Origin: a virus
Taxonomy: Duplodnaviria > Caudoviricetes
Virus record (IMG/VR): IMGVR_UViG_3300024331_000007
Span: 295,891 to 359,890 of that record
Strand: one strand, 5' to 3'
Length of the DNA: 64,000 nt
Positions within the stretch are counted from its first letter, which is position 1, and each line of letters starts with the position of its first letter. The notes beneath the pieces were generated by a model. The model was not told where the DNA came from, searched no databases, and was given only the letters and a program-made list of their open reading frames with translations. Both the position numbers and the translations under genes were made by a program. Positions 13,601 through 49,393 of the stretch are shown here, in pieces.

Positions 13601-15749
13601 AATTGTCGGCTATGCATGGGACGGAAATCCTATTTATGGTCCGTTTGGTTATGCAAATGCAGATGGAACTGGCGGAATCATTCTCAATACCAGTAGCTAT
13701 CAGCTATCGACAACTCCGCGCCTAGATAAAACAGGACAGCCGTTTATCAATGGGTTACAAATGGCGCAGTATGCAGCGCCAAACGGAAACTACATTGAAG
13801 ATTTTATCTATATTCCTAATTCTGGAACACTCGATGAATGTAACGGAAGATTTGTTGTTACCCCGGAATATCCAAACGGCGTTTATGCTTACTTTGCATC
13901 AGCTAGTTTTGAGAATGTAATCTTTATCGATACTGAACTTAACGATGACATCATTACAGAAAATGTAATTAATCTCATTACTGAAAATTCAGCTAATGTT
14001 GCATCTCCGCAACTTCCAGCTTATCCATATGTTATAGGACTAGCATATAATTCTCGACCATTTGGAGTACAATATACTTACATCAACGGCGTTAATACCC
14101 CAGTTTACATCAATGGAAATGTCACTGTTCCTTTAACTCCATATATTGATACTGTAAATCTAATTCGCACTCCAGACGGCTCAGTTGCTTCTGATCCATT
14201 GACTCTATTGGAACCCGTATACTCTGCGTGGAGTAATAATCACTCATACTCAATAGGCAGTATGATTGTTGAACGTCCCGGTTCTGGATATTTGGAATTG
14301 TCATCGGACATTATCGTTACACCGACAAACAATGTGGTCGCATCTGTCTCCAGCTTACAATTAGTTTCTGCAAACATTGTAGCTACAGGTAACAATTACT
14401 CCATCGGCGAAAATATCTCTGTAATTGGAGGAATATTTAATAACGTCGCGACTATTCAAGTAACGAATGTAAATGTTGCTGCAAACAATTCCATTGTTAG
14501 CTTCATGCTCAACCCTGTTACCGATGAGGGATACACAATTATTCCTTCTAACATCGCAAACGTAGCAACATCCTCCATTAATGGTAACGGATCAGGTGCT
14601 ACCTTTAATGTTGCGTTCGGTCTTGAATCAATTTTTGTTTCAGAAACTGGTAATAACTTTACATCTACACCGTCTGTAACGGTAATCGATTCTAACGCAA
14701 CCATTCCAGCAACTGTTTATCCTGTATTGGAAAACAACACAATCCGCAAAATCAATACCACAATGGTATTTGATCGAGTCGAGGCACCTGAGTATCCGGG
14801 TGTATTTGTAAATGCTGGAAACTTCGTTACATCATATCCAGTTCCAACCGGAACGATATTTAATTCCAACGATTCTACTGCTGGTCAAATTTCGTTGAAC
14901 ATCTCATGGCGTCCTGAGCTAATAAGCGACACCTCTCTAAGTACTGAATACTCCAGATTTGGTAATACTGCTGGTGTTTTCAACAACGAAATTGGTCAGT
15001 ACATTACGGCAAACGCAAGCAGCCCTGATCTTGACAAGATTAGCATTAATGCAAATAGCTTCACAGTAGAGTTTTTCATGAACTTCAGCAACTTAGATAA
15101 TCCAATCGGAGTCATGGTTGATACTCGCGCAAATGTAGCCAGCGCGAATGGTTTGGTTGTATTCCGTAGTGGTAGCAACCTGTGTGTGGGTTCAAATACA
15201 AATGTTGCCATTATTTCGACTGGTATTCTTCCATTCACCACAAATGAATGGGAATACATTACCGTACAAGGTAACGGCGGAAACATTTATGCTTATATGA
15301 ATGGTCAATTGGTTGGAACTGCAAACATTGCATTCGACTACACTGATCACAATTTGACTTTGGGGGCTGATGTTGCTGGTGGAAATGTCAGCACTGGATA
15401 TATGGACGAAATTCGTTTGACAACCCAACACAATCGCTATGTACCGGGCATCATAAATATTACTGTTCCTACTGCCGCATTCCCACGATCAATCACTGTT
15501 GATCCATTCTTGCTTCCGCAGCATACACCAATTCTATGGGGATTTGAAAACTTTGTTAATGAAAGCGGAACAGACATTACGTTTATATCTGTTAACGCAC
15601 AAACACTCATCAGTGATTTGTCGTGGAATCAAAAGAAGCTGCAACTTGTAAATTACGGAAATGATCTTGTCATTGACGGGTCCACTATCAATGAACTCGA
15701 AAATCCTCAGACAAGCCAAATTTTAGAAGTACGATTGAATCAAGGATAA
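10680..15749 (+). CDS. Large virion/baseplate protein with a YHYH-like domain and a C-terminal LamG/ConA-like domain
   Basis: GPIGVAIDGVPFFGP, HSPIVGYAWDGNPIYGPFGY and GTLDECNGRFVVTPEYPNGVYAYF (YHYH family); FTVEFF...LTLGAD...GYMDEIRLT (LamG). Own TAAATA (10656-10661) and RBS. Confidence 0.75.
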   Translation: MFGNSLNSKFVLVDSVSATDPAASKFGQNIEWLGTDLFAVTSNLTNPWVGDDLSFSDGAYFDGGHTQFGQLFTTFSQKVDIFQVLDTNRTWINSTDDILNPVPVATIPITGDSTTDVVYSGAIDNLFVSDAGNPAEAIKIFNNPSLAHGWAVFTAQEQRLDSGSISRAWIYDSITRIKLADLEVVDLYAGILPGTIAAQLDFVCDIDPAIYNISQWIPGTSYKIGDRVIYNGLTYQALFAGKSGSMFNTALWTLIPANTNTNAEGIVRWGSEQVGRTWFKTAKLKVINAQLGTLTERAQNWNQWFPNVAIEVYEWVNSSVPPSQYISNTDNGFILDPNCAFTFNPATAQYGFWVFGKDTLGPIHNQTAAQLIGDIIDIPGSGIPMITAIDTNAVAVWNINQFVSANTVVLHIDYVNESANNQLHNEFALISNDGSKSWYKTDIYPKFVDSLSGVSENNQLVPTYTLPIQQQAGILNNPVQSLFVNRVTALDIYFSVINKEIANLAIATSAVISALSAEDPLPTSGFNQEVPNRDVLNELDPSLFPSNYRILVDEDDTLTPVQWSIVANVDNNWQIVEHQLYNLVNNWEYADWFAKNYTNATPTFILENPGQLSQISYVAGDIIQINNNGNGNKVIYLAVINDIDPAVTELDPIFIQNGTIQFLPNLYDFLDSGIGFDNQGFDSQGFDNDPYIAIRLITQILNDTVFVGSNTLTAAADDGFFAILNYIFFENENLDWLFKTSFVTVDYNNRNLDVQGTFQPDNQSSIEDFVSETLPFHTRVREFRDTYSSNDYANVGAVDFDLPSQYDSNFANIVLNLTANPKLNIDLPLSAFRRNVGVALDSRSVYVTSNGIPAAPTMPSFIQDWNFGIVKKPITEPIKYSTVPNTLGPIGVAIDGVPFFGPNSGITETLYQYGNISAPFANIANSATYTINSVFAAENQGGDPGLGYTNLKGQYIYQANPYAMANAAVGLHSPIVGYAWDGNPIYGPFGYANADGTGGIILNTSSYQLSTTPRLDKTGQPFINGLQMAQYAAPNGNYIEDFIYIPNSGTLDECNGRFVVTPEYPNGVYAYFASASFENVIFIDTELNDDIITENVINLITENSANVASPQLPAYPYVIGLAYNSRPFGVQYTYINGVNTPVYINGNVTVPLTPYIDTVNLIRTPDGSVASDPLTLLEPVYSAWSNNHSYSIGSMIVERPGSGYLELSSDIIVTPTNNVVASVSSLQLVSANIVATGNNYSIGENISVIGGIFNNVATIQVTNVNVAANNSIVSFMLNPVTDEGYTIIPSNIANVATSSINGNGSGATFNVAFGLESIFVSETGNNFTSTPSVTVIDSNATIPATVYPVLENNTIRKINTTMVFDRVEAPEYPGVFVNAGNFVTSYPVPTGTIFNSNDSTAGQISLNISWRPELISDTSLSTEYSRFGNTAGVFNNEIGQYITANASSPDLDKISINANSFTVEFFMNFSNLDNPIGVMVDTRANVASANGLVVFRSGSNLCVGSNTNVAIISTGILPFTTNEWEYITVQGNGGNIYAYMNGQLVGTANIAFDYTDHNLTLGADVAGGNVSTGYMDEIRLTTQHNRYVPGIINITVPTAAFPRSITVDPFLLPQHTPILWGFENFVNESGTDITFISVNAQTLISDLSWNQKKLQLVNYGNDLVIDGSTINELENPQTSQILEVRLNQG

Positions 15750-22029: not shown

Positions 22030-22630
22030 CAACACAACCGCTATGATTTCATTGAATCCCCACGAACCCAAAAAGTGGTAGTGGATCAGGAGGGAATGGA
22101 AGGTTTGGAACTTCGAAGATAATCATACGCATTATCTTTTTACCCAACTTTGACGCCTGCGGCGTTTCTGTCTTTAAAAACAGACCAAAATACTCCCTAG
22201 AAAGGAAAAAACAAGAAAATGCGACGACGAGAAATTGTGGGTTGAGCAAAGCGAAACACACAATTTTGAGGAGACGCGGGTCGCAACGAGACGCGAAGCG
22301 GATCGGCGGGACCACTCACAAAGTCCCTTCTGCAATGCACTAATCAATTACAATTAAAAGCTATTATCCTTAAAATCAAGGACGGCCCGAGGTGTGTGAA
22401 CCAAGCGAAAATTGCTCCTTTGGAGCAAGACCGGGTTGTGCTTCGCACAACGCCAACCGCTTCGCGGCTGGCCTTACGTGTAAAGAGGTCTTTCGTTCGT
22501 CTGCGCTCGCTCGCGCTCCTTCGTCGCGGCTCCTCGCTTGACTCACTCAATACCATGTCGCTTCGCTCTTTTTCTTTTGAGGAACCAGAGGTTTGTTGTT
22601 TTGTTCTTTAGAAGGTGTTCCGCTTTTCTG
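22030..22630. other. Hairpin-rich non-coding region, candidate replication origin or structured element
   Basis: No convincing ORF; multiple short inverted repeats with 3-nt loops and GCGAAGC/GCTTCGC motifs; locally GC-rich. Confidence 0.5.
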
Positions 22631-22651
22631 ACTAAATACGCCAGAGGTATT

Positions 22652-23104
22652 ATGTCAGAAACAGGTCATTGGGTTTTTCCGAAAGAATTTGATCCAGAGC
22701 AATTCATAGGTTTTGTATATCGGATAACTCATATTCCGACAGGCAGATCATATTTGGGGAAGAAATTTTTTCACTCGACTATTCGCAAGATAGTCAAAAA
22801 CCGAAAAAACAGAAAGAAGGTAATAAAAGAATCGAATTGGAAAAAATATACTGGCAGCAGCAATTGGCTAAACTCAGAAATTGCACTGTATGGAAAAGAC
22901 CAATTCGCCTTTGAAATTTTAAGTCTCCACGAATCTCGTGGAACCTTAGCATATGCTGAAGTTGAGATTTTGGTTACGAAAAATGTATTGAGGGCTAAAC
23001 TTTTGGATGGGTCTAAAGCCTACTACAATGGATTAATTCCTCCCATCAAGTTCACACCGGGAGATGAAACTGAGATAGAAAAGCAGTACAAAATTCAAAC
23101 ATGA
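22652..23104 (+). CDS. GIY-YIG-like protein of a type conserved in T4-like phages
   Basis: GFVYRITH...YLGKKFF...ESNWKKYTGSS; start placed after TAAATA (22633-22638) and a GAGG RBS. Confidence 0.7.
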   Translation: MSETGHWVFPKEFDPEQFIGFVYRITHIPTGRSYLGKKFFHSTIRKIVKNRKNRKKVIKESNWKKYTGSSNWLNSEIALYGKDQFAFEILSLHESRGTLAYAEVEILVTKNVLRAKLLDGSKAYYNGLIPPIKFTPGDETEIEKQYKIQT

Positions 23105-23126
23105 TGTAAATTATGGAGGTGCCACA

Positions 23127-23729
23127 TTGTCCGACCAAAATATTTCCAGCGACCAGTTGCACCAAAATTACATTAAACTTGCTAAGATTTTACATCCTGA
23201 TCTTAATCCTGATGATCCAGATGCTGACAAAAAGTTCCAAGATTTGCAGGAACAATACGAAAAAGCACAAAAACTTCTCGGAAATAAAGCCCAGTATCAA
23301 GCATCTGTGTCCATTCCTCTTTCGGAAGCGATTTCAGGTACTGAGAGATTCTTTGTTTCTGATGATGGAAAACGATTTTTGCTGACAATTCCTGCTGGTG
23401 TAAAAAACAAGCAGACAATTTTATATAGAGGCATTCAAGTCAATTCGGATAATGATGCTGTTTTACATATTCGTGTTCATATCGATGCCCCAACCAAATT
23501 TAAAATTATTGGTGATCATCTCATACTTAATGAGCACATCCCTTTCTGGAAATTAATTTTTGGTGGAAGGCATGAGATTACTGGACCAGATGGCAAAATA
23601 ATTCCAGTGACAATTCCTCGTAAAACAAAGAATGGAAAGATGTTTAAGGTTCAGAATGCTGGTCTTTGGAATCGAGCCGATAAGAAGAGGGACCCTCTTT
23701 ATATTCAATTTTTTGGTTCTGCTATTTGA
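23127..23729 (+). CDS. dnaJ: DnaJ/CbpA-like co-chaperone (J domain plus C-terminal domain, no zinc finger)
   Basis: LAKILHPDLNP HPD motif; C-terminal IP...GKMFKV...GL...RDPLYI; TTG start with GGAGG RBS. Confidence 0.85.
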   Translation: MSDQNISSDQLHQNYIKLAKILHPDLNPDDPDADKKFQDLQEQYEKAQKLLGNKAQYQASVSIPLSEAISGTERFFVSDDGKRFLLTIPAGVKNKQTILYRGIQVNSDNDAVLHIRVHIDAPTKFKIIGDHLILNEHIPFWKLIFGGRHEITGPDGKIIPVTIPRKTKNGKMFKVQNAGLWNRADKKRDPLYIQFFGSAI

Positions 23730-23754
23730 CACCGTATTCATATTCTGCTATTCT
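23726..23754 (+). promoter_or_regulatory. sigma70-like promoter
   Basis: TTGACA-N17-TATTCT upstream of the Clp ATPase. Confidence 0.6.
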
Positions 23755-23774
23755 CATTTTGAGGGTCACACATA

Positions 23775-26084
23775 ATGTCTAATTTCAAGACCAGTTCCAG
23801 AATCATTGAGCACGTAGTTGAAATGAGTCTAGCTGTTGCATTCAGTTTTGAGCACACAACCGTAACAACTGAACATGTACTTCTCGGAATCATGCAAAAT
23901 TCAATTTTGCGGCGATTTATGGCTGCGAGTAATGTTCAGGTCAATGAACTACTTACCGATGTAATTGATTATGTTGATCAAAATTCTCATCTCCTGAAAA
24001 ATCCAACTCAACAACTCGGCGGAGAGGGATATCTCACAGGACAACTCACGTCTGAACTGATTGTTCTGTTTAAAAATCTTGAGAATTACGCAAAGTCTGA
24101 GAATCGAGAAGTTGATCTTTCGGATGTTTTGCTTGGGCTTTTGAATCTGCGGGAAACATACACAAGCTACTTCATGACGAAGTATGGAATCACTGAAGAC
24201 ATTATTTTGCAGTTAAGAAAGGGATTATCGATGGCGTCTCAATCGCTGTCCGCTGTCAATGACATTAAATCATCACAAGGTAGAGGGCCAAAGCAGAGTG
24301 CATTGGAAACTCATTGTGAAAATGTAAATGAAAAGGTCAAGAACGGTCTTTCCGATCCTCTAGTCGGACGTTCAAATGAAATTCTCACAATTGCACATAC
24401 GTTTTGTAAGCGCAAGAAATGCAATGTAATTCTTGTCGGCGATCCGGGTGTAGGTAAGAGCATGATTATAGAGGGTCTTGCCCAAAGAATCAATTCTGGA
24501 GATGTTCCTGAACCTCTTAAGAATAAGATTATCTATAGTTTAGATGTTGGACAGCTTGTTGCTGGCGCAAAATATCGCGGGGATTACGAAGATAAGATCA
24601 CTGACATTCTTGAAGAATTGTCATCTCGTAAGGATGCAATTTTATTCATCGATGAAGCCCAGACAATGGATGCTGGTGATGGAAAAGGGCAAATGGGACT
24701 CGGCCTATCTTCAATGATTAAGCCTTATTTGAGTAGAGGAGCGGTGAAAGTTGCCGCAGCGACTACATGGGAAGGTTTCCGTCAAACATTCGAAAAAGAT
24801 ACAGCATTGATGCGTCGATTCCGCGTGGTAGGAGTGAGTGAACCATCTAAGGTTGAGACTGTTGAGATTTTGAAGGGTGTTCGATCCTCAATGGAATCTT
24901 TTCACACAGCGACTATTACAGATTCAGGCATTGAAGCTGCTGTTGAATTGACTGGAAAATATCAACCAGAAAAACGTTTTCCAGATAAAGCAATCGATAT
25001 TATCGATAGCGCCTGCGCACGGATCAAAGTTGCTGTTGATGGTTCAAATGTAATTGATAGAGCAAGTATTATTCGTGAAATTACAGACATGACTGGAATT
25101 TTGATTAAAACAGAAACAACAGATGAGGGTGCGGCGAAGCGTGTTCTTGAATTAGCTTCCAGATTGAAGACTGTTGTTATTCATCAAGATAAGGCCATCG
25201 ACACTGTTGCGAAAAGCATTATCGTAAGTCAGGCTGGCCTTAAGGAAGATAAAAAGCCAATTGGATCATTCTTGTTTGTCGGACCAAGCGGAGTTGGAAA
25301 AACATTCCTTGCTCAAGAACTTGCCGCAGATTTGAACATGACATTCATTCGCTTTAATATGAGCGAGTTTATGGAAAAGCATGCTGTTGCAAAGTTGATT
25401 GGCGCACCACCGGGATATGTCGGATTTGGTGACGGAAAATCCGGGGAAGGTTTGCTTATCAATGAACTTACACGCAAGCCAAACAGTGTGGTTCTGTTTG
25501 ACGAAGTCGAAAAGGCTCACCCTGATATTTTCAATATATTCCTCCAACTGTTTGATGACGGTGAGGTTTCGGGTAGCGGAAAGACAGCAGATGCCAAAAA
25601 CTGCATCTTAATCATGTCAAGTAACCTTGGTTCTAAGGAATTGAAGAAAAAGTTGTCGGGTTTTAGAACTGAAAAAACTGGTAAGAGCGAGACTTCTAAG
25701 GCCGTTGATAACTTCTTCCTCACAGAACTTCGTGGAAGACTGACGGCAACTGTTGAATTTGATGAACTTGATGATTTGAGCTATCGTCGAATCATTGTGG
25801 ACCGAATTAACGATATTACGAAGATGCTTAATAATCGTGATGTTCGTGTTGTTGCCACAGAAACATTAGTATCACATATTCTGGAACTAAATAAGGATAG
25901 TGGTTATGGCGCACGAAACATTGCTGGTATCGTCAAGGACATTATTAACTATCCTCTCAGCGTAAAATTGCTGAGTTGCGAAATTAACAATGGCAGCAAT
26001 GTATCGTTGGATTGGGTCAATGAAGAACTAATAATTGACCAAAAATTGATTAAGGTTCCTGTAGAGGCACCTATCGAAAAGTGA
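23775..26084 (+). CDS. clpA: ClpA-type Hsp100 AAA+ ATPase
   Basis: Clp N-domain (EHVLLG), Walker A GDPGVGKS and GPSGVGKT, FIDE, PDKAID, GAPPGYVG, FDEVEKAHPD; no ClpB middle domain evident. Confidence 0.9.
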   Translation: MSNFKTSSRIIEHVVEMSLAVAFSFEHTTVTTEHVLLGIMQNSILRRFMAASNVQVNELLTDVIDYVDQNSHLLKNPTQQLGGEGYLTGQLTSELIVLFKNLENYAKSENREVDLSDVLLGLLNLRETYTSYFMTKYGITEDIILQLRKGLSMASQSLSAVNDIKSSQGRGPKQSALETHCENVNEKVKNGLSDPLVGRSNEILTIAHTFCKRKKCNVILVGDPGVGKSMIIEGLAQRINSGDVPEPLKNKIIYSLDVGQLVAGAKYRGDYEDKITDILEELSSRKDAILFIDEAQTMDAGDGKGQMGLGLSSMIKPYLSRGAVKVAAATTWEGFRQTFEKDTALMRRFRVVGVSEPSKVETVEILKGVRSSMESFHTATITDSGIEAAVELTGKYQPEKRFPDKAIDIIDSACARIKVAVDGSNVIDRASIIREITDMTGILIKTETTDEGAAKRVLELASRLKTVVIHQDKAIDTVAKSIIVSQAGLKEDKKPIGSFLFVGPSGVGKTFLAQELAADLNMTFIRFNMSEFMEKHAVAKLIGAPPGYVGFGDGKSGEGLLINELTRKPNSVVLFDEVEKAHPDIFNIFLQLFDDGEVSGSGKTADAKNCILIMSSNLGSKELKKKLSGFRTEKTGKSETSKAVDNFFLTELRGRLTATVEFDELDDLSYRRIIVDRINDITKMLNNRDVRVVATETLVSHILELNKDSGYGARNIAGIVKDIINYPLSVKLLSCEINNGSNVSLDWVNEELIIDQKLIKVPVEAPIEK

Positions 26085-28811: not shown

Positions 28812-29345
28812 ATGAAGATTTCTGAAGTTGAAAAAAATATCAGTACAGCCTTTGTTGATTTAGATGGCGTTATTGCGTGGCTAGATAAAGGAGTCGCGGA
28901 TTACAATAATATCTCTTTGGTAGAGCAGGAAGCCGCAGGATGGGATAACGAATATTGGCACAATGTTTTAGATACAGCTAATATTGAGCAGTTTTTCGCC
29001 AACCTTGAATGGATGCCCAATGGAAAGAATCTAGTCGGATGGTTTCAACAGAGACATTTACCAATGAAGTTTCTTACAAGACCAGTCAAAGAGCCAAACG
29101 AGGCTGCTTGCATCGCTGGTAAGAAAAAATGGCTTCGCAGCAAAGGTATAGGAAACATTCCAGTAATTTTCGAAAGGGATAAAGAAAAATATGCCGTAAA
29201 TTCAGATGGAACCGTAAACATTTTGATAGATGACCACAGCGGCAACGTTCAAAAATTTAGTGATGCTGGGGGCGTGGGGATTCATTATAGAGATTTTTGG
29301 TTTCCAGATGTGATAGCAAAACTTGAAAATCTCTATAATCTATAA
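28812..29345 (+). CDS. HAD-family 5'(3')-deoxyribonucleotidase (NT5C-like)
   Basis: FVDLDGVIA, FLTRP, GKKKWL and ILIDD motifs. Confidence 0.85.
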   Translation: MKISEVEKNISTAFVDLDGVIAWLDKGVADYNNISLVEQEAAGWDNEYWHNVLDTANIEQFFANLEWMPNGKNLVGWFQQRHLPMKFLTRPVKEPNEAACIAGKKKWLRSKGIGNIPVIFERDKEKYAVNSDGTVNILIDDHSGNVQKFSDAGGVGIHYRDFWFPDVIAKLENLYNL

Positions 29346-29348
29346 ATA
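29341..29348 (+). promoter_or_regulatory. T4-type late promoter TATAAATA (exact match)
   Basis: Exact consensus 5 bases before the ATG at 29354. Confidence 0.75.
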
Positions 29349-29353
29349 TCTTC

Positions 29354-30364
29354 ATGAAGATTAGGGAAGTAATTGAAAGTTCCACAATGACTCTCTGGAA
29401 CGGAGGGCGTGGATTACAATTCAACCATATGGAAATGCTTCCAGCTAAGCACGGAAGATGGGAATATGGACCGGGACTTTATCTTACAACTCACTATGAT
29501 ACCGCACGTTCATACGCAAAAGGCGGAGGATCAGTCTACAAAGTTATAGTTGAAATAGGAACAGAACTCAGTGAAGTTGATGTTCCTTTGGAAGATGCAA
29601 TAGACTTTGTAAAGAGATACGCAATCGGTAAACATCGCAAAGACCTAATCACAGACCTCCAAAATAATCTTAATAGAACTGGCGTTCTAAAGCTTGCAGT
29701 TCTCATAAATCTGTGCGTAAACTATGAATGCCTAACGCCAAAGAATACTGTTGCTCTACGCAAATTTGTAGTCGAACACGGTGCTGATTATGAGATTTCC
29801 AAAGGTTTCAATGGTCGTTCAGAGACAATTGTGATCGTATTTAATCCTACTGTAATCAAGGGCGTTACGCCTGTCAAGGCGGCTGATGTTAAATCTGACG
29901 AATATGAGCAGACAATCAACGAAGTGACCATTGATAACAAAAAAGGCGCCGGTGCCACCCCAAACAATGAAGAAATTGACTACTTTGGTTTCAGAATCCT
30001 TATGAAGCCATCCACTTTCCTTAAATTGGCTGCAACAATGGACAGTGAACAGGTTGATCGTCTTGTGAACTATGTAAAAGACGGCGGTGCGATTGCTTCG
30101 CCATTTTTGAGAGTCAGTATTCCCGATGGATGGGAAAAAGGGGAGTATTCTGATCCAGCTACTATCTATTCCCATGAAGGACGCCATCGTATGATTGCCG
30201 TCCAGAAAGTAGATGGCGATATTCCCATTGAAGTACATATGATTTTTGCTGGCGGTTTACGAGCCAGAAACATCAAGCCTGAATGGTTTCAGTTGATGAA
30301 TAATGAAATGGTTAGTGAGGAAGGCAGGTTGATAACTGGTCCGTTCTTTCAACTCAAAAAGTAA
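29354..30364 (+). CDS. Two-domain protein: ADP-ribosyltransferase-like N-terminus and ParB/Srx-like C-terminus
   Basis: LWNGG...YGPGLYLT...A.SYA (ART-like) and HEGRHRM (ParB-like), separated by TINE|V; leader MKIREVIE|S. Confidence 0.55.
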   Translation: MKIREVIESSTMTLWNGGRGLQFNHMEMLPAKHGRWEYGPGLYLTTHYDTARSYAKGGGSVYKVIVEIGTELSEVDVPLEDAIDFVKRYAIGKHRKDLITDLQNNLNRTGVLKLAVLINLCVNYECLTPKNTVALRKFVVEHGADYEISKGFNGRSETIVIVFNPTVIKGVTPVKAADVKSDEYEQTINEVTIDNKKGAGATPNNEEIDYFGFRILMKPSTFLKLAATMDSEQVDRLVNYVKDGGAIASPFLRVSIPDGWEKGEYSDPATIYSHEGRHRMIAVQKVDGDIPIEVHMIFAGGLRARNIKPEWFQLMNNEMVSEEGRLITGPFFQLKK

Positions 30365-30374
30365 ACCACCGGGA

Positions 30375-30403
30375 TAAATAAACTAGAAGGATAACTAGTT
30401 TAT
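30375..30403 (+). promoter_or_regulatory. Late promoter overlapping an RBS/start-codon hairpin
   Basis: TAAATA overlaps the left arm of ATAAACTAG-aaggataa-CTAGTTTAT(G). Confidence 0.7.
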
Positions 30404-31142
30404 GAATATCTATTCGGACCAAATACAATCAATTTGCAATAACAAATATATTCAAACATATAAACGCTTGTGTGAACGGGCGGATTCCAGAGCCAAAACA
30501 AAGAAATCAGCTAATAACTTAGTCGGATATGTTGAAAAACATCATATTCTTCCAAAAGCCTTTAAATTGGGTGGAGAGAAGGACACGATGAACTATGTTT
30601 ATTTGACAGCTAGAGAACATTTCATTTGTCATAAGCTATTGGTTTTTGGATTTCGCGGAACACTATACTATTATTGCTGTTTGAACGCTATGAAAAAATT
30701 CATTCAAGCGTCTTCTAAGCAAAAAAGAATTTTGTCATCGCGAGATTATCAATTTGTAAGATCATGTTTGTGAGAGTCGATGAATGGAAAGAATAATCCA
30801 ATGTTTGGTAAAACTGGAAAATTATCTCCTCGATATGGAGTTAAACATTCGGAAGAAACCAAAGCTATAATAAGAGAAAAACGTAAGACTCAACAAATAA
30901 CTGAGGCCATGTTGTTGTCGTTAAAAAATGGAAGAAAAGATAGTTCAGGAACAACTCCCACGGATGAAGTTTTGATAAAAATGAAAGCAGCACAGTCTGG
31001 AAGAATGTGGGTTCACAATGATACAGAAAAGCATCGCATAAAAAAAGAACAGGCTCAAAAGTATCTTGATTTGGGATTTTTGCTCGGTAAAGGAAAATCT
31101 CCTAAATATAATCATGCTGCTAAACGAGATAGTTCAACCTAA
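30402..31142 (+). pseudogene. HNH/NUMOD3 homing endonuclease interrupted by one in-frame TGA (30771-30773)
   Basis: EKHHILPK...N.V.LTAREHFICH in the first part; the frame continues tga-gag-tcg-atg into NPMFGK...HSEETK repeats. Confidence 0.7.
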
Positions 31143-32649
31143 AATTCGTAAAGTTTTATGTATTCTTCCCGGTGGGTTTCATATTTTTCATTCGGGGCAT
31201 TTGTCTGTTTACCAATATCTCAAGCATAAGTTTCCACAAGCAGATGTATTTGTCGCTTCAACGAATAACACAAAGGAACGCCCATTTCCATTTAAAGAAA
31301 AGCAATTTCTGGCTTCTCAGGCTGGAATCCCCTCTGATAGATTTGTTGAAGTTGTCAGCCCATACAAGGCAATAGAAATTACAGAACATTATAACCCAGA
31401 AGATACGGTTCTTATTTTTGCTCTCAGCGAAAAAGACAAGGATCGTCTTGGAAATCCTCTGAAAAAAGACGGAACTCCAGCATTTATGCAGCCATACCCC
31501 GGCTCTATTGCCAAATGTCAACCATTTGCAAAGCATGGATACTATGTTGTAACTCCAACAATCAAATTTACAGTTTTAGGTAATATGATTAGTTCAGCTT
31601 CTCAGATTCGTGAGATGTACAAAAATGCAGATGACCAGACTAGACTGGATATTGCAGAAGACCTCTATCCAATCTCGCAACAAATTCCAAAGGTGAAGAA
31701 GATTTTGGATGATGTGTTGGGTTCTGCGCCTATTACGGAGGCAATAAGTAAAAGTATTGTACCCGGTTGGTTACTTCCAGATGGTAAAAATTTACCAATA
31801 ACCAAAAATGTAACTCACCACAAAATTTTGAATCAATATGGAATGCAAGATTATTACGAAGCATACAATAAGGGTTGGATTAGAATTTCAATTGCACAGT
31901 TTCAATCTCATAATGTTGCTTGTTTAGAAATTGATCGACCAATTAAACAGGTTGAAAATCGTTTGGAAGCAGCAGCTAAGCAACTACAAACCAAATATCC
32001 AGAGGTTGTTGCGTATTGTGGTTCTGGATCAACATATGGAAAATATCTTTGGGACGGTAAAGAGTTTGTAAAAATTCATAAAGTAGTTGGAATATCGGAA
32101 CACATCGTAAAGCTGAAGAGTGGCAAGTATCGTTTGCTATCACATAAGGGAAAGAACCTTGGAACCTTTGACAGTCGCGCAGCCGCAGCGAAGCACGAGG
32201 GCGAGGTTGAATACTTCAAGCACATGAAGGAATCACCTGACTACGGATACAGCAGCTATTTTGATAGAGAAGACGAGTTGAAGAAATTGATTTGGTCATC
32301 AAAGAATCTTCTTCCAACTGGAGAAGCTGTTGGAATTTATGCTCGTACACCAGATTCTTCATCTCAAGAATGGGTTGCCAGAATGGGTTTACAGATTGAA
32401 GAAGAGAACGGAAAGCTGTTCAGAGCAACAATTCGTCAGACTACAATAGGTCACGATTGGACTGGAACGGGTCTTGGTCAACAACTTTACGATCATGCAA
32501 TTTCATATGCAAAGAAGCGAGGATGCAAGTTTTTCTGCTCCGATATTCAACGAACAATGGATGCTGAGGGTGCGTGGAAGAGATTGTCAAAGCGTTACCC
32601 AGTTGAGAAGCACACCAACTACTACATTATTGATTTGAGTAAGGTGTAA
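31114..32649 (+). CDS. Multidomain protein: cytidylyltransferase-like domain, two small domains and a GNAT acetyltransferase
   Basis: PGGFHIFHSGH (HxGH); GTGLGQQLYDHAI...A..AWKRL (GNAT). Start MLLNE after TAAATA at 31103-31108. Confidence 0.7.
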   Translation: MLLNEIVQPKIRKVLCILPGGFHIFHSGHLSVYQYLKHKFPQADVFVASTNNTKERPFPFKEKQFLASQAGIPSDRFVEVVSPYKAIEITEHYNPEDTVLIFALSEKDKDRLGNPLKKDGTPAFMQPYPGSIAKCQPFAKHGYYVVTPTIKFTVLGNMISSASQIREMYKNADDQTRLDIAEDLYPISQQIPKVKKILDDVLGSAPITEAISKSIVPGWLLPDGKNLPITKNVTHHKILNQYGMQDYYEAYNKGWIRISIAQFQSHNVACLEIDRPIKQVENRLEAAAKQLQTKYPEVVAYCGSGSTYGKYLWDGKEFVKIHKVVGISEHIVKLKSGKYRLLSHKGKNLGTFDSRAAAAKHEGEVEYFKHMKESPDYGYSSYFDREDELKKLIWSSKNLLPTGEAVGIYARTPDSSSQEWVARMGLQIEEENGKLFRATIRQTTIGHDWTGTGLGQQLYDHAISYAKKRGCKFFCSDIQRTMDAEGAWKRLSKRYPVEKHTNYYIIDLSKV

Positions 32650-32651
32650 CC

Positions 32652-33146
32652 ATGCTATTGAGAGAATTGTTTGAGTCTCCCGACTTTGGTTACAAGATGT
32701 TTGTGGATCGTGATGATGATATTGCAAAGTTAATTTGGAATGTGGAATTTGAAAAGGACGGGTCTAAACTCGAATCCATCATAATTCGCGCACTGAGCAA
32801 TGTTGGTAAAACAGAAATGCTCAGCAACAACGGATTGAACAGAGAAGGAATCATAATTATCAGAAGAAACGGGGAAAAGTTTCAGATAACCCGAAGTCAG
32901 TTGACACAATACAGACAGGGACATGAAGGCTGGGCATCTACAGGTCTTGGACAACTTCTATACGACAAGGCTGTTGCTGAATGCAAAAAAGCTGGTATTA
33001 GATACTTGATGAGTGACTATACATTATCCATTGAAGCTAGAAAAGCATGGAAAAAGTTGGCTACTCGATACCCTGTAACTAAGGAAACAGATAGTCTGGA
33101 AGGTGATAAAGTTCACTACTTTCAGATTGATTTGAGTAAGGTGTAA
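32652..33146 (+). CDS. GNAT-family acetyltransferase, paralogue of the upstream C-terminal domain
   Basis: STGLGQLLYDKAV...ARKAWKKL; the last 21 nt are identical to those of the upstream gene. Confidence 0.75.
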   Translation: MLLRELFESPDFGYKMFVDRDDDIAKLIWNVEFEKDGSKLESIIIRALSNVGKTEMLSNNGLNREGIIIIRRNGEKFQITRSQLTQYRQGHEGWASTGLGQLLYDKAVAECKKAGIRYLMSDYTLSIEARKAWKKLATRYPVTKETDSLEGDKVHYFQIDLSKV

Positions 33147-33157
33147 GGAGAAGTAAA

Positions 33158-33592
33158 ATGAAGAACCTAGAAGTAACCATGAAAATCGCCTCATCGTCTG
33201 TGTTTTGTTTTTATCTCAAGACACATTTTGTTCACCTGAACATCGTTGGGCCGAATTTTTATGAGTATCACAAGTTGACGGACAAAATCTGGAAGGACAT
33301 GATTGATTCTTTTGACGCAATAAGTGAACAGATTCGCTCTCTTGACATCTTCGCTCCAGCATCATTGATAGCATTCAACGAATATAGTGTCGTTGAAGAT
33401 ATGGATAACGTTTCAGAAGCTCAATCAATGATTTACGAACTCCTATTGGACAATGAATCTGTTATAGAAACATTGAAAGAAGCAAACGCAATGGCAACAG
33501 ATCATCCCGGTCTTCAGAACTTCCTTCAGGGACGTATTGAAGCACATGAAAAATGGGGATGGATGTTGAGAGCCACCGTAAAGGGTAAATAA
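33158..33592 (+). CDS. dps: Dps / ferritin-like DNA-protection protein
   Basis: H.VHLNIVGPNFYEYH...D.ISEQIR...H.KWGWMLRA. Confidence 0.9.
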   Translation: MKNLEVTMKIASSSVFCFYLKTHFVHLNIVGPNFYEYHKLTDKIWKDMIDSFDAISEQIRSLDIFAPASLIAFNEYSVVEDMDNVSEAQSMIYELLLDNESVIETLKEANAMATDHPGLQNFLQGRIEAHEKWGWMLRATVKGK

Positions 33593-33605
33593 TACAGGTG
33601 ATACA

Positions 33606-34550
33606 ATGAGACTTTCCCAAATCAAAGAAACAGCCTCGGCTGGCGCAACAGGAGCAGGAGCGATCTGCACAAATCTTGCTGGCGGAACACCACCAAAGGG
33701 ACAATTCTTCGGTGGCGATCCCGCGTCTTCAATCTATCCAACAATCAAAAAGCATCGCAAGGCGCGTAAGGAAGAAACTGTTGAGGAAGCAGTTAAAACA
33801 GCTAAACAGCCAAAGAAGCCATCTGGAAAAGCAGAAGTCATTGGTACTACGAAGCCATACAAGCAACCAAATGTCCTTAGTCCAACAATGAAGGTTAAGT
33901 CCACTGGTAAAATGTTGGGTGGTTCTGAAAAGAAGAATCCTACTCTTTCTACAAAGTTCTTCGGAACATGCAGCGCAACAAATGATCCCGGTAACAAGTC
34001 AATCATTGCTGAATTGAGTTACAATGAGTTCAGAAATGCAAGCAACGCAATCACAAAGATGTGTCCAACTTGTTCTTCACCATTCAAGAACATACATGAC
34101 GCAAAACAAAAGTTTTGCTCAAAGGAATGTGAGGGACCGGGCCAAGTAGCTGAAAAGCTGAAAGAAGCATTCGACAGAATGTGGGAACAGTTTGAAACCA
34201 AAGATGGAAAAATCATTGATGTGAAAACTGTTAGAGATTTGGTGAAGCGTGTAATGGATGACAGTGGTGGACAGATGGGCAGACTTCAGGCTTGTTTGTT
34301 TGTTGCTGGAATGTTGAAAAATTGCACAGGATGGACCGTTCATTTTGCTTTGGAAGATTTGGCAAAGAAAGAAGCAGCGGAGATGTATAAACCAGTATCG
34401 GAATCCATTCATTCCATTAAAGTTTTTGTGGGTAAAAATTTGACTCGCGAGGAAGCCATTTCGGCATTCGATGAAAAGAACACTAAAACCCAAATGGACC
34501 AAAAGATTATCGCGGGTTCAAATACGATACCAAAACAGGAATCGCAATAG
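33606..34550 (+). CDS. Modular hypothetical protein, probable internal head protein
   Basis: Leader MRLSQIKE|TASAGATGAGAI; K-rich segments; CPTC...KFCSKEC zinc motif; late TAAATA at 33586-33591. Confidence 0.55.
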   Translation: MRLSQIKETASAGATGAGAICTNLAGGTPPKGQFFGGDPASSIYPTIKKHRKARKEETVEEAVKTAKQPKKPSGKAEVIGTTKPYKQPNVLSPTMKVKSTGKMLGGSEKKNPTLSTKFFGTCSATNDPGNKSIIAELSYNEFRNASNAITKMCPTCSSPFKNIHDAKQKFCSKECEGPGQVAEKLKEAFDRMWEQFETKDGKIIDVKTVRDLVKRVMDDSGGQMGRLQACLFVAGMLKNCTGWTVHFALEDLAKKEAAEMYKPVSESIHSIKVFVGKNLTREEAISAFDEKNTKTQMDQKIIAGSNTIPKQESQ

Positions 34551-46396: not shown

Positions 46397-46757
46397 ACAC
46401 GAATGGGAAAAGAAGATTCTGGATTATCACGCCGATGTGTTAGGTCAGCCGATCCCCGCTGACGAAATTGCATTTTGGTGGTATCGGGGTGGAAATTCTG
46501 GAATGCGTTTGGAAAAACTGGGATTCAATCGTTTTGTTCAAGCTGGCATTTCGTTTAATAAGTATGATGTGACAGTTGAACAATGGTTTGGTTCCATTAC
46601 AGTTGGATTGAGTCGAATGCCATGTCCGTTTTATATTGAACCGACAGCGAAGTATTCGATGGATTACGAATTTTACTTGCCAGATGAAGAGTATGCCATG
46701 ATGTTTATGTTCATGGAAAATAATTTGGTAATGTTTGCGAAAGGGTTTATGACATGA
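46380..46757 (+). CDS. Hypothetical protein
   Basis: WW...GG.SGMRL...G...F...CPFY pattern; overlaps both neighbours. Confidence 0.55.
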   Translation: MERLTKHEWEKKILDYHADVLGQPIPADEIAFWWYRGGNSGMRLEKLGFNRFVQAGISFNKYDVTVEQWFGSITVGLSRMPCPFYIEPTAKYSMDYEFYLPDEEYAMMFMFMENNLVMFAKGFMT

Positions 46758-47239
46758 AATTATTCAGTGAGTACCTAGCAGAAGCCGAAGAACACAAAGA
46801 TGGAACATATGGTGCATTGCTGCCAACACAAACCAGCAGAGAGAAGTTGCATGAATGGATGGAAAAACAAGATATCCCAAATCTTGTTGAATCAAAAGAA
46901 TACCATTGCACTGTTGTTTATTCCACAAAACCAGTTCCAGAAGTTGCAGACATTCTCGCTCCTGTCCCATTCAGTGCAACAGTGCGTGAATGGAAAGTTT
47001 TTGGTGAAGATAAAATGCTTGTGGCGGCACTTGATTGTCCACAGGCCCAAAAACTTTTTGATAAGACAATCGATATGGGAGCAAAAAATGATTATCCCGA
47101 ATACGTCCCGCATATAACAGTTGCTTTGAAATATGAAGGCGACGTGCCAAAAGAGAAACCAGAATTTAAGATTGTTTTCCATAAATTCAAAGTATCCCCG
47201 ATGGACGCCGATTTTTCGTATAGTGACACTGAAGATTAG
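46754..47239 (+). CDS. acb1: Acb1 / T4 57B-like 2H phosphoesterase (anti-CBASS candidate)
   Basis: Two HxT motifs (EYHCTVVYS, YVPHITVA) and GTY, LV..LD and GA..DY.EY layout matching T4 57B as I recall it. Confidence 0.8.
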   Translation: MKLFSEYLAEAEEHKDGTYGALLPTQTSREKLHEWMEKQDIPNLVESKEYHCTVVYSTKPVPEVADILAPVPFSATVREWKVFGEDKMLVAALDCPQAQKLFDKTIDMGAKNDYPEYVPHITVALKYEGDVPKEKPEFKIVFHKFKVSPMDADFSYSDTED

Positions 47240-47265
47240 CCCAAAAGGGCCAAATAGCCTCCCAT

Positions 47266-47288
47266 AAACCCTTCAAAATGAAGGGTTT
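47266..47288 (+). terminator. Intrinsic terminator
   Basis: AAACCCTTCA-AAA-TGAAGGGTTT followed by a T-run. Confidence 0.75.
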
Positions 47289-47297
47289 ATTTTTTGG

Positions 47298-47326
47298 TTG
47301 ACTTTAATGGGGAAGTTTGGTATACT
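47298..47326 (+). promoter_or_regulatory. sigma70-like promoter
   Basis: TTGACT-N17-TATACT, with TGG just before the -10. Confidence 0.75.
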
Positions 47327-47350
47327 ATATATGTTGGTGAGAGGAACAAT

Positions 47351-47527
47351 ATGACTGTTTTCGGAGCGTTTGCTGACTGGTCGTATGAGGGAGATGAGTT
47401 GCTTGGAATTTTCTTGCATTCGCCGTCACATGAAGAAATCAACGCTGTATGGCGTGAAAACCCCGAACACAGGTTTGATCTTGCTCCCGAAGACGTTTTT
47501 GTGAAAGAAATTCCAGTTCGTTTGTAA
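47351..47527 (+). CDS. Small early hypothetical protein
   Basis: GAGG RBS and ATG downstream of the promoter. Confidence 0.55.
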   Translation: MTVFGAFADWSYEGDELLGIFLHSPSHEEINAVWRENPEHRFDLAPEDVFVKEIPVRL

Positions 47528-47553
47528 AAAATGAGTTTTCCACAGGCTGAGGG

Positions 47554-47582
47554 TTGACAACAGACCCAAAGTACGAGATAAT
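47554..47582 (+). promoter_or_regulatory. sigma70-like promoter
   Basis: TTGACA-N17-GATAAT. Confidence 0.7.
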
Positions 47583-47620
47583 CAAAGAGTAGCAGAAACC
47601 CCGAAAGGAAAAGCATTCAA

Positions 47621-48808
47621 ATGGCAAAGGGAAACGCAATCGATACCACGGAAGCATACACAATTAATGAGTTGATTCCGCTTCTGAAACGCGCAATGCG
47701 TGTCAAGCTCCCCGTATTTCTCTGGGCACAGCCGGGTGTCGGCAAGTCGTCCATTATTCGTCAGATCGCTTCAGACATGGGCGGAAAGTGCGTGGATATG
47801 CGCCTCAGCCAAATGTCTCCTACTGACATTATCGGCATTCCGTATTACGACAAGGCAACTTGCAAAATGAAGTTTGCCGAACCGTCGCGTCTTCCTTCGG
47901 AAGCATTTGCGAAGGATCAGCCAATTATCATTCTCTTCCTTGACGAAATGAACTCTGCTCCGCCTGCCGTACAGGCAGCAGCATACGAACTCGTTCTGGA
48001 TCGCCGCTGCGGTGAATACGAGTTGCCTGATAACGTTCGCGTTATGGCAGCGGGTAACCGCGAGTCTGACCGTGGCGTTACCTATCGCCTTGCTACTCCG
48101 CTGGCGAACCGCTTGCTCCACTACGACCTGAAGGTGGACTTCGATTCATGGCTGGATTGGGCGCTTTCTGCCGTTCAACATCCTGACGTGATTGCGTATA
48201 TCACCACCTACAAGTCTTCGTTGATCGATTTTGATCCGAACAGCGCAAGCAAGTCGTTCCCGACGCCGCGTTCGTGGGAGTTTGTTTCGAAGCTTCTCTT
48301 TACGAACACTGACGAAGACCAGATGACTGACAGCGACATTCGCGCTTGTGTAGGTGCGGCGGTTGGCGCTGGCGAGGCTGTGAAGTTCATGAACTACCTC
48401 AAGGTTGGCAAGAATTTGCCGAAGCCCGGAGATGTTCTGAGCGGCAAGGTGAAGGAAATTGGCACGAAGGAAATTTCCGCTCACTATCAGCTTATCATCA
48501 GCATGCTCTATGAGATGCGCGACTTCTGGCATTCCAACAGTGTTCAGACGGACGAGATGGTGAATCTCGGCCAGAACAAGAAGGTGAACAAGCGCAAGTG
48601 GAACAACGACAAGGCTCAGGAAAACTGGCTCCGTATGTTCGACACGTTCAATACGTTCATCATCACGCAAATCTCGCTCGAAATCGGCATCATGGTAATG
48701 CGCATGGCTGTTTCGAACTACCACTTCTCTACCAGCACGGACATGACGAAGTTGAAGACGTGGCCGAAGATGGCAGAAAAGTATTTCCCGTATATGAAGG
48801 AAGCATAA
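47621..48808 (+). CDS. MoxR-family AAA+ ATPase
   Basis: AQPGVGKS, LFLDEMN, AAGNR and PLANR motifs. Confidence 0.85.
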   Translation: MAKGNAIDTTEAYTINELIPLLKRAMRVKLPVFLWAQPGVGKSSIIRQIASDMGGKCVDMRLSQMSPTDIIGIPYYDKATCKMKFAEPSRLPSEAFAKDQPIIILFLDEMNSAPPAVQAAAYELVLDRRCGEYELPDNVRVMAAGNRESDRGVTYRLATPLANRLLHYDLKVDFDSWLDWALSAVQHPDVIAYITTYKSSLIDFDPNSASKSFPTPRSWEFVSKLLFTNTDEDQMTDSDIRACVGAAVGAGEAVKFMNYLKVGKNLPKPGDVLSGKVKEIGTKEISAHYQLIISMLYEMRDFWHSNSVQTDEMVNLGQNKKVNKRKWNNDKAQENWLRMFDTFNTFIITQISLEIGIMVMRMAVSNYHFSTSTDMTKLKTWPKMAEKYFPYMKEA

Positions 48809-48822
48809 GCTAACCTTCAAGA

Positions 48823-48847
48823 GTGGCAGGATGAAAAGTCCTGCCAC
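48823..48847 (+). terminator. Hairpin after MoxR
   Basis: GTGGCAGGA-TGAAAAG-TCCTGCCAC. Confidence 0.6.
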
Positions 48848-48988
48848 AGTTGTTCTAACCCGAAAAGGTGACTCTGTAAATGATTGATTCTAAAGGAGCC
48901 AAAACATGAATTTGTATGTTTTTTAACAGTTAGTGTATCCTAGCATGTTTGAGACATAAAAGTTTGATTTTTGAAAGGATATTGAATC

Positions 48989-49297
48989 ATGACTCTTGAA
49001 ACTCTCCGCGAATATTGGCATGATCACAGCACTCCTACAGGCAAGGTCCAAACTTTTAGCGAAAACAAGAGCATCGACCTTCGCGAATGGAAGGATCAGG
49101 AATCGCACGAAACATTCAAGGCAATGTTCAATGATTTTATCGCGAGTGCGATGGCCGAAAATGATTCGGATCGAGTTTACAATGTCATCATGCGCGAGGC
49201 CGTAAATAAGTATAATCTGCATGCAGCAACGGATATCACCTTCCTCAAAGCGTGGTCTGACTTGGTTGAAGGAATAAAGGCCAACCTTACTCGTTGA
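48989..49297 (+). CDS. Hypothetical protein
   Basis: AAGGA RBS; 102-aa ORF between MoxR and vWA. Confidence 0.6.
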   Translation: MTLETLREYWHDHSTPTGKVQTFSENKSIDLREWKDQESHETFKAMFNDFIASAMAENDSDRVYNVIMREAVNKYNLHAATDITFLKAWSDLVEGIKANLTR

Positions 49298-49337
49298 TAA
49301 TCAACGACTTAGCCTGTGGAAAATCCTTGAAAAAGGG

Positions 49338-49366
49338 TTGATTTTACCACCAAACTTGTGTATACT
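49338..49366 (+). promoter_or_regulatory. sigma70-like promoter
   Basis: TTGATT-N17-TATACT. Confidence 0.65.
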
Positions 49367-49393
49367 AGATGTATGAGGAATAAGGTGAGTCGC

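Follow-up and report, generated by a model that had tools for sequence, protein, structure and literature searches.

Leader-driven targeting of proteins into the capsid and their processing by the prohead protease gp21 are textbook T4 biology. The locus described here, positions 29354 to 34550 of the final 64 kb of a 359,890-bp IMG/VR virus record from an uncultured phage (64,000 nucleotides, hereafter the window), harbors four genes starting at 29354, 31114, 32652 and 33606, whose products begin with a short leader and consist of modules bordered by hydrophobic-x-Glu sites. The locus has a leader family, a module grammar with shuffling at Glu sites, disordered linkers and a late-type promoter motif, and a prohead protease is encoded in the same window. 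On this analysis, with a probability of about 0.7, the proteins are capsid-addressed cargo precursors that would be made late, cleaved by the S77 protease and carried into the next cell along with the DNA. An earlier note on this DNA had observed such leaders and Glu-ended borders and interpreted them as a head-packaged cargo matured by proteolysis. The observation is confirmed and is firmer than the note had it. The interpretation is partly supported, in that all of its parts accessible to a sequence-level test came out in its favour. Coordinates refer to the window, and features to its plus strand, unless stated otherwise.

In T4, the function of the capsid-targeting sequence (CTS) and the gp21 processing are established (PMC9026906, PMC3012670). 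One of these accounts reports that ten residues of the CTS of internal protein (IP) III suffice for head targeting and that gp21 removes a short N-terminal propeptide from Alt, and a loading of varied proteins by T4-like phages via the CTS has already been proposed in reviews (PMC9026906). IPI, IPII, IPIII and Alt, which lose their leader to gp21 and are ejected together with the DNA, share with the proteins of the window a short N-terminal leader ending in hydrophobic-x-Glu (here MLLRELFE and MKIREVIE). Both phages encode a protease of the gp21 family (S77), a T4-like portal and a T4-like capsid protein. The putative cargo includes an ADP-ribosyltransferase (ART), as does that of T4 with Alt, and in both cases the set of proteins varies widely and evolves fast, the leader being its one conserved part (PMC3012670, PMC9026906). 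Unlike in T4, the leader comprises 5-8 residues and is nearer to Alt than to the ten-residue IP type. The T4 internal proteins are single small basic proteins, whereas the candidate cargo consists mostly of multi-module enzyme precursors with cut-site linkers and permuted module order. It is located in a 360-kb Rak2/GAP32-like jumbo phage.

Polyvalent proteins, known since 2017 from phages and conjugative elements (Iyer et al.), combine unrelated conflict-type domains in one chain, and ART-PolyVal, GNAT, nucleotidyltransferase and, as a lead, ParB-like domains occur in both systems (PMC5512222). A delivery with the invading DNA and a processing into units have been proposed for them as well (PMC5512222). 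Their processing is attributed to a built-in zincin-like metallopeptidase, while no peptidase domain was found here by Pfam. Nucleotidyltransferases of the pol-beta type are listed there as specific to conjugative elements (PMC5512222); that of the window belongs to the HxGH class. The proteins described here have a T4-type address leader, and at their borders stands the motif of a prohead protease encoded apart from them.

Proteases of the phiKZ type prefer a small residue (S/A/G) at P3. In the proteins described here and their relatives, P3 is I, L, V, F or M at 35 of 35 junctions, and the leaders have 5-8 residues. In phiKZ, 201phi2-1 and SPN3US, distant relatives of gp21 (gp175/gp245 proteases) likewise cleave inner-body and ejection proteins after Glu, often at several sites per protein (PMC9026906, PMC10052503). 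Most of these cuts take a long propeptide off the N-terminus (111-254 residues in SPN3US) instead of separating enzymes (PMC10052503), and no portable short leader is described for those proteins. In the Dar system of phage P1 (DarA/DarB/DdrB), DNA-protecting enzymes are packaged into the head, and the ParB-like DdrB is processed proteolytically (PMC5512222). Its incorporation takes another route, which is ordered and protein-dependent, and it has neither a hydrophobic-x-Glu module grammar nor the context of an S77 protease. In the literature searched, no description was found of a T4-type address leader together with modules that are set apart by a prohead-protease motif and permuted from phage to phage, in Rak2-like and other uncultured T4-related phages. 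The new element, as far as it can be read from genes, would be a combination of T4-type capsid targeting with the architecture of polyvalent proteins.

Modular proteins of the locus

The gene at 29354-30364 encodes a 336-aa protein comprising a leader, an ART-PolyVal-like module and a second module. The leader MKIREVIE (29354-29377) contains two nested hydrophobic-x-Glu sites, IRE5 and VIE8, and its residues 1-8 have a predicted local distance difference test score (pLDDT) below 50. The adjoining module (residues 9-190, ending TINE190; 29378-29923) is ADP-ribosyltransferase-like of the ART-PolyVal type, modelled with a pLDDT above 90. Its match to Pfam PF18760 lies below the cut-off (E 4.7e-4), and the same domain is present on several homologues. 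Foldseek identified an ART fold, with matches to Tpt1/KptA, the catalytic domains of cholix and diphtheria toxin, RES toxins and an anti-CRISPR protein. The best PDB match of the ART-bearing model was chain B of the cyanophage A4 pre-ejectosome (9k3a_B, E 8e-5), which is a lead only because the structure paper does not name an ART domain in it (PMC12002296).

The second module (residues 191-336; 29924-30364) starts with VTIDNKKGAGATP and was called ParB-like in the earlier note. Language-model (Atlas) features and the predicted structure suggest a ParB/Srx-like module, with an Atlas feature score of 0.93 and a template-modelling score of about 0.5 against clusters bearing ParB_N. Searches with Pfam and PDB profiles gave no match, and the ParB-like identity is treated as a lead only. 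In the model of the 336-aa protein, residues 1-8 and 191-209 are disordered and the ParB-like part is of low confidence. The proposed border TINE190|V between the two modules coincides with the site where model confidence falls, at the edge of the confident ART domain.

The gene at 31114-32649 encodes a 511-aa protein that comprises the leader MLLNE, an HxGH nucleotidyltransferase, a middle part of two modules, B and C, and a GNAT acetyltransferase. After the leader (31114-31128), IVQ stands in place of the LFE of a relative, and the second Glu is lost. The nucleotidyltransferase module (residues 6-209, ending PITE209; 31129-31740) is cytidylyl- or adenylyltransferase-like (Pfam PF01467, E 3.8e-5). 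Module B (residues 210-329, ending GISE329; 31741-32100) occurs in up to four copies in relatives. A search with it yielded no informative match, the look-alikes being only viral hypothetical proteins of about 111 aa. Module C (residues 330-373; 32101-32232) is a mini-domain of 44 aa with three strands and a helix, HIVKLK...EYFKHMKE, and has a Glu site at either end. In structure it resembles, among others, N-terminal domains of integrases and small domains of the YegP type, as a lead only. The GNAT module (residues 374-511, SPDYGY...IDLSKV; 32233-32649) was recognized by Pfam PF00583 (E 3e-4).

An AlphaFold model of the 511-aa protein, based on a 37-sequence alignment, shows four folded domains with a mean pLDDT of 88.7. 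The pLDDT is below 50 only at residues 206-212, 324-328, 365-375 and 379-382. The borders PITE209|A, GISE329|H and HMKE373|S, drawn by the earlier note, fall at these stretches, with the P1 residue of GISE329 one residue beyond the stretch 324-328. Three of ten internal hydrophobic-x-Glu sites are located in or beside the approximately 29 linker residues, compared with 0.6 expected (binomial estimate, P ~0.02). The structure predictions of both the 336-aa and the 511-aa protein agree with the borders being linkers, a check that the note had proposed. A peptidase domain was detected by Pfam in none of the four proteins, and the 511-aa model contains no folded domain beyond the four assigned modules.

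A stand-alone GNAT paralogue of 164 aa is encoded at 32652-33146 and reads SPDFGY directly after the leader MLLRELFE; a homologue (P0102) starts MRLEELFE|TPDFGY. The duplicated unit begins at the Glu site, as had been suggested: the BLASTP alignment of the two GNAT copies starts at FKHMKE-SPDYGY and LRELFE-SPDFGY (E 8e-29), and the copies are 37% identical from SPD(Y/F)GY onward.

The fourth gene (33606-34550) encodes a modular protein of 314 aa. It starts MRLSQIKE|T and continues with a conserved Ala/Gly-rich N-domain, a basic stretch, the site IIAE136|L, a Zn-ribbon-like module (LSYNEFRNA..CPTC..FCSKEC) and a C-terminal module. In relatives of this family, other modules are inserted between ILGE| and xxE|(S)LxYKEFRNA. 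In the syntenic relative L007, the homologue of the 314-aa gene is directly followed by an extra 288-aa gene (14325-15191; start MRLYELQRKKKKEQ), which has no counterpart in the window.

Module junctions in relatives

The comparison with relatives is the strongest part of the evidence drawn from sequences. L007 encodes an ART-ParB protein that is 87% identical to that of the window. Its nucleotidyltransferase gene (348 aa) reads MELRELFE|A...PITE|SPDFGY and continues with GNAT. Because the two modules are joined directly at PITE|SPDFGY in L007, residues 210-373 of the window protein represent an insertion, with PITE| and HMKE| as its exact limits. The L007 gene that follows comprises three GNAT-type modules, starting MLLAELFE|SPDFGY, ALKE|D and ARLIE|SPDFGY, respectively. 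The orders ART-ParB, ParB-ART, GNAT-ParB-ART, GNAT-ParB and ART-other were found in metagenomic relatives, and as many as four copies of module B follow one another. The modules had been predicted to be shufflable, with a comparison across related phages as the proposed check; order and number indeed vary, with the borders at Glu.

Glu at P1 and I, L, V, F or M at P3 were present in 23/23 distinct GNAT junctions and in 12/12 distinct junctions of the mini-module C. The positions P2 and P4-P6 are unconstrained, and the background of the motif is 2.3% per residue. By its sequence, the junction motif is of the T4 gp21 type. Stand-alone ParB-like proteins begin MRATEFITE|VTIDNVKGAGATP; at the corresponding point, the window protein reads TINE|VTIDNKKGAGATP. 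Hydrophobic-x-Glu precedes 19 of 20 pattern matches to the ParB-like start, and the 20th is a false match. The Tunturiibacter phage Tunturi_5 (PP885688.1, 225802-230271) harbors the same SPDF-type GNAT in the C-terminal part of gp273, a multidomain protein of 1489 aa annotated as MutT/NUDIX hydrolase. Since this copy is preceded by RVA|SPDF, with neither Glu nor such a leader, the Glu is not intrinsic to the GNAT module. A search of the Tunturi_5 genome for Peptidase_S77 gave no match.

The internal sites might be scars of gene fusion. Only the N-terminal leader would then function, the internal hydrophobic-x-Glu sites would be remnants of the leaders of fused genes, and the multi-module proteins, packaged or not, would stay uncut. 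A 487-aa relative (P0044) retains the whole MRATEFITE, Met included, internally before its ParB-like module, and the window junction EQTINE|VTIDN is like the stand-alone leader TEFITE|VTIDN. The leader genes are only 2-20 nt apart, so that read-through fusion would be easy. However, only P1 and P3 are kept at the 35 distinct junctions while the remainder of the leader has decayed, which points to selection for a protease motif. The motif is also located between tandem repeats of one module and at the C-terminal edge of the 44-aa module (YFKxxxE|), and the linkers are disordered and accessible. Fusion accounts for an origin of the sites and is compatible with their use; as the whole explanation it is unlikely.

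Leader peptides

The N-termini of the four genes, MKIREVIES (29354), MLLNEIVQP (31114), MLLRELFES (32652) and MRLSQIKET (33606), are of a common type, M-x-(L/I)-x-E-(L/I/V)-x-E. The similar short leaders ending in Glu described earlier are confirmed as N-termini, and that of 31114 lacks the second Glu. Its ATG and the upstream TAAATA are homologous to those of L007, whose protein begins MELRELFE|A. Glu5 of each window leader forms an (I/L)-x-E site itself, aligned with ITE of T4 Alt, a point missed in the earlier note. The second Glu of 31114 (MLLNE|IVQ) can therefore have been lost. The T4 leaders, read from NC_000866, are MKTYQEFIAE for IPII and IPIII, MKTFKEF for IPI and MELITELFDE for Alt. 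The window leaders align best with T4 Alt, x-L-x-x-E|L-F-(D)-E.

Approximately 13 genes of this genome start with such a leader, and chance predicts far fewer. For the generic pattern (I/L/V/F)-x-E, the first 10 residues show no enrichment (12% of N-termini vs 10% at internal Met). The pattern M[KRL][ILV]x[EQ][ILV]xE occurs at 5 N-termini, compared with 0.08 in shuffled sequences and none at the 1957 internal Met, a contrast that is optimistic because the pattern was derived from the same data. At the DNA level, the pattern for M-x-hydrophobic-x-E-hydrophobic-hydrophobic-E gave 5 matches with 0.15 expected, four of the five at gene starts, and a broad leader pattern gave 15 with about 5 expected. 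The leader copies of this genome encode the same residues by differing codons; silent positions vary, and it is therefore the peptide, not the DNA, that is constrained.

The same type of octapeptide heads the unrelated ART, ParB-like, nucleotidyltransferase, GNAT and 314-aa families. Judged by these sequences, the leader is portable between protein families. Some members of the ART and nucleotidyltransferase families are leaderless and begin at the first core residue. The ART homologues are mostly stand-alone proteins of about 190 aa, in which the TMTLWHGG core is preceded by a leader of the MKIxELxE type, by a T4 IP-type leader or by nothing. T4 IP-type leaders on ART and ParB-like homologues are of the MKTFKxFxxE type, e.g. 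MKTFKQYIVE, MKTFKEHFEE, MRTFKQFLLE and MQTFKQFLSE. The nucleotidyltransferase family comprises 2175 representative clusters at E <=0.001; its members have M-x-(L/I)-x-(D/E)-L-F-E and about ten further residues, or start right at the first beta-strand. The only cultured phage found with a leader-bearing module is the Ralstonia jumbo phage RsoM2USA. Its ORF385 (L106, 1477-1974) has MQTFKQFLSE followed by a ParB-like module and is located two genes from the major capsid gene ORF383. The virion study of this phage sequenced only ten abundant gel bands and is uninformative on ORF385 (PMC8504454).

Further leader genes form an operon at 46399-50077 on the minus strand in coordinates of the whole record (G000:C1), and are located there also at 41217, 74535, 268410, 269985 and 288577. 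The leader N-termini of the operon, with GP88 and GNAT domains, are confirmed. Starts among the further genes are MRASEFITE (GNAT), MRLREIICE, MRFEEFIVE (GP88 domain), MLLHEIE, MKVAELFE, MKYHQLLE, MRISEIINE and MRLHELFE, and most of these genes belong to no known family. The NT5C-like gene at 28812 (MKISEVEK) was considered as a fifth leader gene of the window and left out because its orthologue in L007 begins MKISDIDL.

A homologue of Acb1, the 2H phosphodiesterase directed against the cyclic-oligonucleotide-based antiphage signaling system (CBASS), is encoded at 46754-47239 (Pfam PF23474, E 5e-23). It starts with MKLFSEYLAE|AEEH, a T4-IP-like leader. The Pfam match extends from residue 17, and the match to T4 Acb1 (57B, which adjoins ipI in T4) from residue 10. 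This homologue may be a pre-packaged anti-CBASS enzyme.

Late-promoter-like motif

The core of the T4 late promoter is TATAAATA, with which the hexamer TAAATA agrees. The octamer is located at 29341-29348 and ends 5 nt before the ATG at 29354. It is not enriched in the window as such (3 found, 3.0 expected), and the hexamer upstream of genes is therefore the informative form. In the whole genome, TAAATA is located within 45 nt upstream of 73 genes, compared with 8.7 expected, with a sharp peak of 20 genes at 5 nt before the ATG. Genes for scaffold, portal, protease, tail and baseplate are among those preceded by it. It was found upstream of 8/13 leader genes, including 29354 (29343-29348), 31114 (31103-31108) and 33606 (33586-33591, 14 nt upstream). 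From this motif, a late expression of the leader genes is plausible. The spacing to the ATG suggests that many late mRNAs of the phage, including that of 29354, are leaderless or near-leaderless. A scan of the locus for sigma-70 promoters and terminators returned background level.

These features would also suit late enzymes that remain in the cytoplasm, with an octapeptide that serves translation of leaderless mRNAs, stability or degradation, or some other localization. Three genes have TAAATA 5 nt before the ATG, implying leaderless mRNAs with possibly constrained first codons, and the locus is situated amid genes of replication and nucleotide metabolism. Yet 17 other TAAATA-N5-ATG genes have no such peptide, and several leader genes possess ordinary Shine-Dalgarno leaders; the leaderless-mRNA reading of the leader was rejected on account of the former. 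The varying silent sites place the constraint on the peptide rather than on the RNA. Both the same motif at internal module borders and the T4 CTS type, defined by experiment, at the same place in other homologues are left unexplained by cytoplasmic enzymes. This account is quite improbable. That leaders and junctions are merely DNA-level recombination sites for cassette exchange was rejected as scarcely credible: module exchange does occur exactly at these points, but the same residues are encoded by different codons in this genome, and the junction peptides differ (PITE, KINE, SLKE, LFE and others), leaving no conserved DNA identity long enough for homologous exchange.

Source phage and head machinery

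The record has an estimated completeness of 90% (CheckV). Its major capsid protein belongs to the Gp23 family (E 7e-96). It shares 71% identity with the capsid protein of Vibrio phage 2.275.O and 67% with its counterparts in GAP32, CBB and related Rak2-like jumbo phages. The source is a T4-related, Rak2/GAP32-like jumbo phage of 360 kb. A T4-type portal gene is located at 56197 (Portal_T4, E 5e-97). The prohead maturation protease of the T4 gp21 type is encoded at 61037-61684 (Peptidase_S77, Pfam PF03420, E 3.3e-24; phrog_207, 2e-55). The earlier claim of a gp21-like protease at 61037 is therefore right. An L-R-E|A site in the capsid protein roughly aligns with the cleavage region of T4 gp23, in a part where the alignment is loose. 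A nucleotide search with the locus against a phage collection found nothing, and tblastn searches with the ART-ParB and the 511-aa protein matched no more than three or four phage records, all of them distant.

Some 65 bases from the beginning of the record (G000:C1, 1-100) are repeated at its end (359791-359890). The assembly is probably permuted or closed into a circle, with an open reading frame (ORF) that leaves the window at its end (63154-) resuming at the genome start.

Proposed delivery of the cargo

The proposed mechanism would start with the transcription of each gene from a T4-late-type TAAATA promoter while proheads form. An Alt/IP-type leader, M-x-(L/I)-x-E-(L/I/V)-(F/I)-E, would carry the protein into the scaffolding core, as the T4 capsid-targeting sequence does. 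The body would consist of independently folding modules, namely ART-like, ParB-like, HxGH nucleotidyltransferase, two small modules, GNATs and a Zn-ribbon, separated by disordered linkers, each with (I/L/V)-x-E. Within the prohead, the Peptidase_S77 protease (61037) would strip the leader and cleave the linkers. The freed enzymes would remain with the DNA, enter the next host and act before phage gene expression.

Several points weigh against this mechanism. Targeting, cleavage, head retention and injection of the leader proteins are transferred from T4 (PMC9026906, PMC3012670), and the enzymatic roles of the modules are predicted ones. Hydrophobic-x-Glu is a short motif, and junctions that are homologous count only in part as independent observations. 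In HMKE, P3 is Met, unusual for T4 gp21, and the leader of 31114 is degenerate (MLLNEIVQ). The leader genes adjoin those for DNA polymerase and nucleotide metabolism, outside the head cluster. For Pectobacterium phage CBB, a virion proteome has been published. The leader pattern gave 3 matches there, one of them within a baseplate gene; the other two are small leader-like proteins annotated as hypothetical and not as structural, and the comparison was uninformative. Ten large IMG/VR contigs were compared for the presence of the leader and of Peptidase_S77, a test that did not discriminate: the protease is present in 2/2 complete leader-bearing records and also in the sole complete leaderless record, and it is missing from 7/7 incomplete ones.

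A further point against the mechanism concerns the ART module. The invariant His of the NAD-binding LWHGG motif, present in 36/36 aligned homologues, is replaced by Asn16 in the window copy (codon AAC, 29399-29401). Tyr43 and Glu157 are retained, and the H-Y-E triad of ADP-ribosyltransferases is incomplete in this copy. Judging from these residues, it may be inactive or altered. Alternatively, the Asn16 codon could be a base error in the metagenome assembly.

Neighbouring genes

A homing endonuclease, split into two ORFs (an N-terminal part of phrog_655, then a NUMOD3 part), is inserted between two of the candidate cargo genes at 30402-31142. Its end overlaps the start of 31114, and the insertion is missing from the syntenic L007. 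It is outside the cargo system. A Dps/ferritin-like protein without leader is encoded at 33158-33592. L007 encodes DnaJ-like (200 aa) and ClpB/AAA-like (775 aa) proteins in a region syntenic with 22538-26084 of the window (plus strand). Window ORFs of corresponding size are located at 23127-23729 and 23775-26084; if equivalent, they would form a phage chaperone pair just upstream of the cargo cluster.

Significance

A more general proposal stands at about even odds on this analysis: hydrophobic-x-Glu modules with an Alt/IP-type leader would constitute a portable grammar, by which proteins are loaded, released by S77 proteases and delivered in uncultured T4-related and jumbo phages. The idea predicts exact neo-N-termini, so that one proteomics experiment would be enough for a test. 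The grammar would offer a sequence-only route to the prediction of injected effectors in metagenomic phage genomes. Its rules for leader, linker and module could be used for engineered protein delivery by phages, beyond the existing T4 CTS tools.

If the general grammar holds, one gene would give rise to more than one enzyme for injection, and phages would exchange modules at the cut sites, which would account for the shuffling of effectors among phages. The nucleotidyltransferase family alone accounts for 2175 representative clusters, with leader-bearing and leaderless members mixed. The cargo would include ready-made counter-defence enzymes, for which the Acb1 homologue with its CTS-like leader is the candidate here. 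Capsid targeting would be a widespread modular delivery and not a peculiarity of a few T4 internal proteins. Large phages would pre-load enzyme kits for the first seconds of infection, comprising NAD-linked transferases, nucleases, acetyltransferases and possibly anti-CBASS enzymes.

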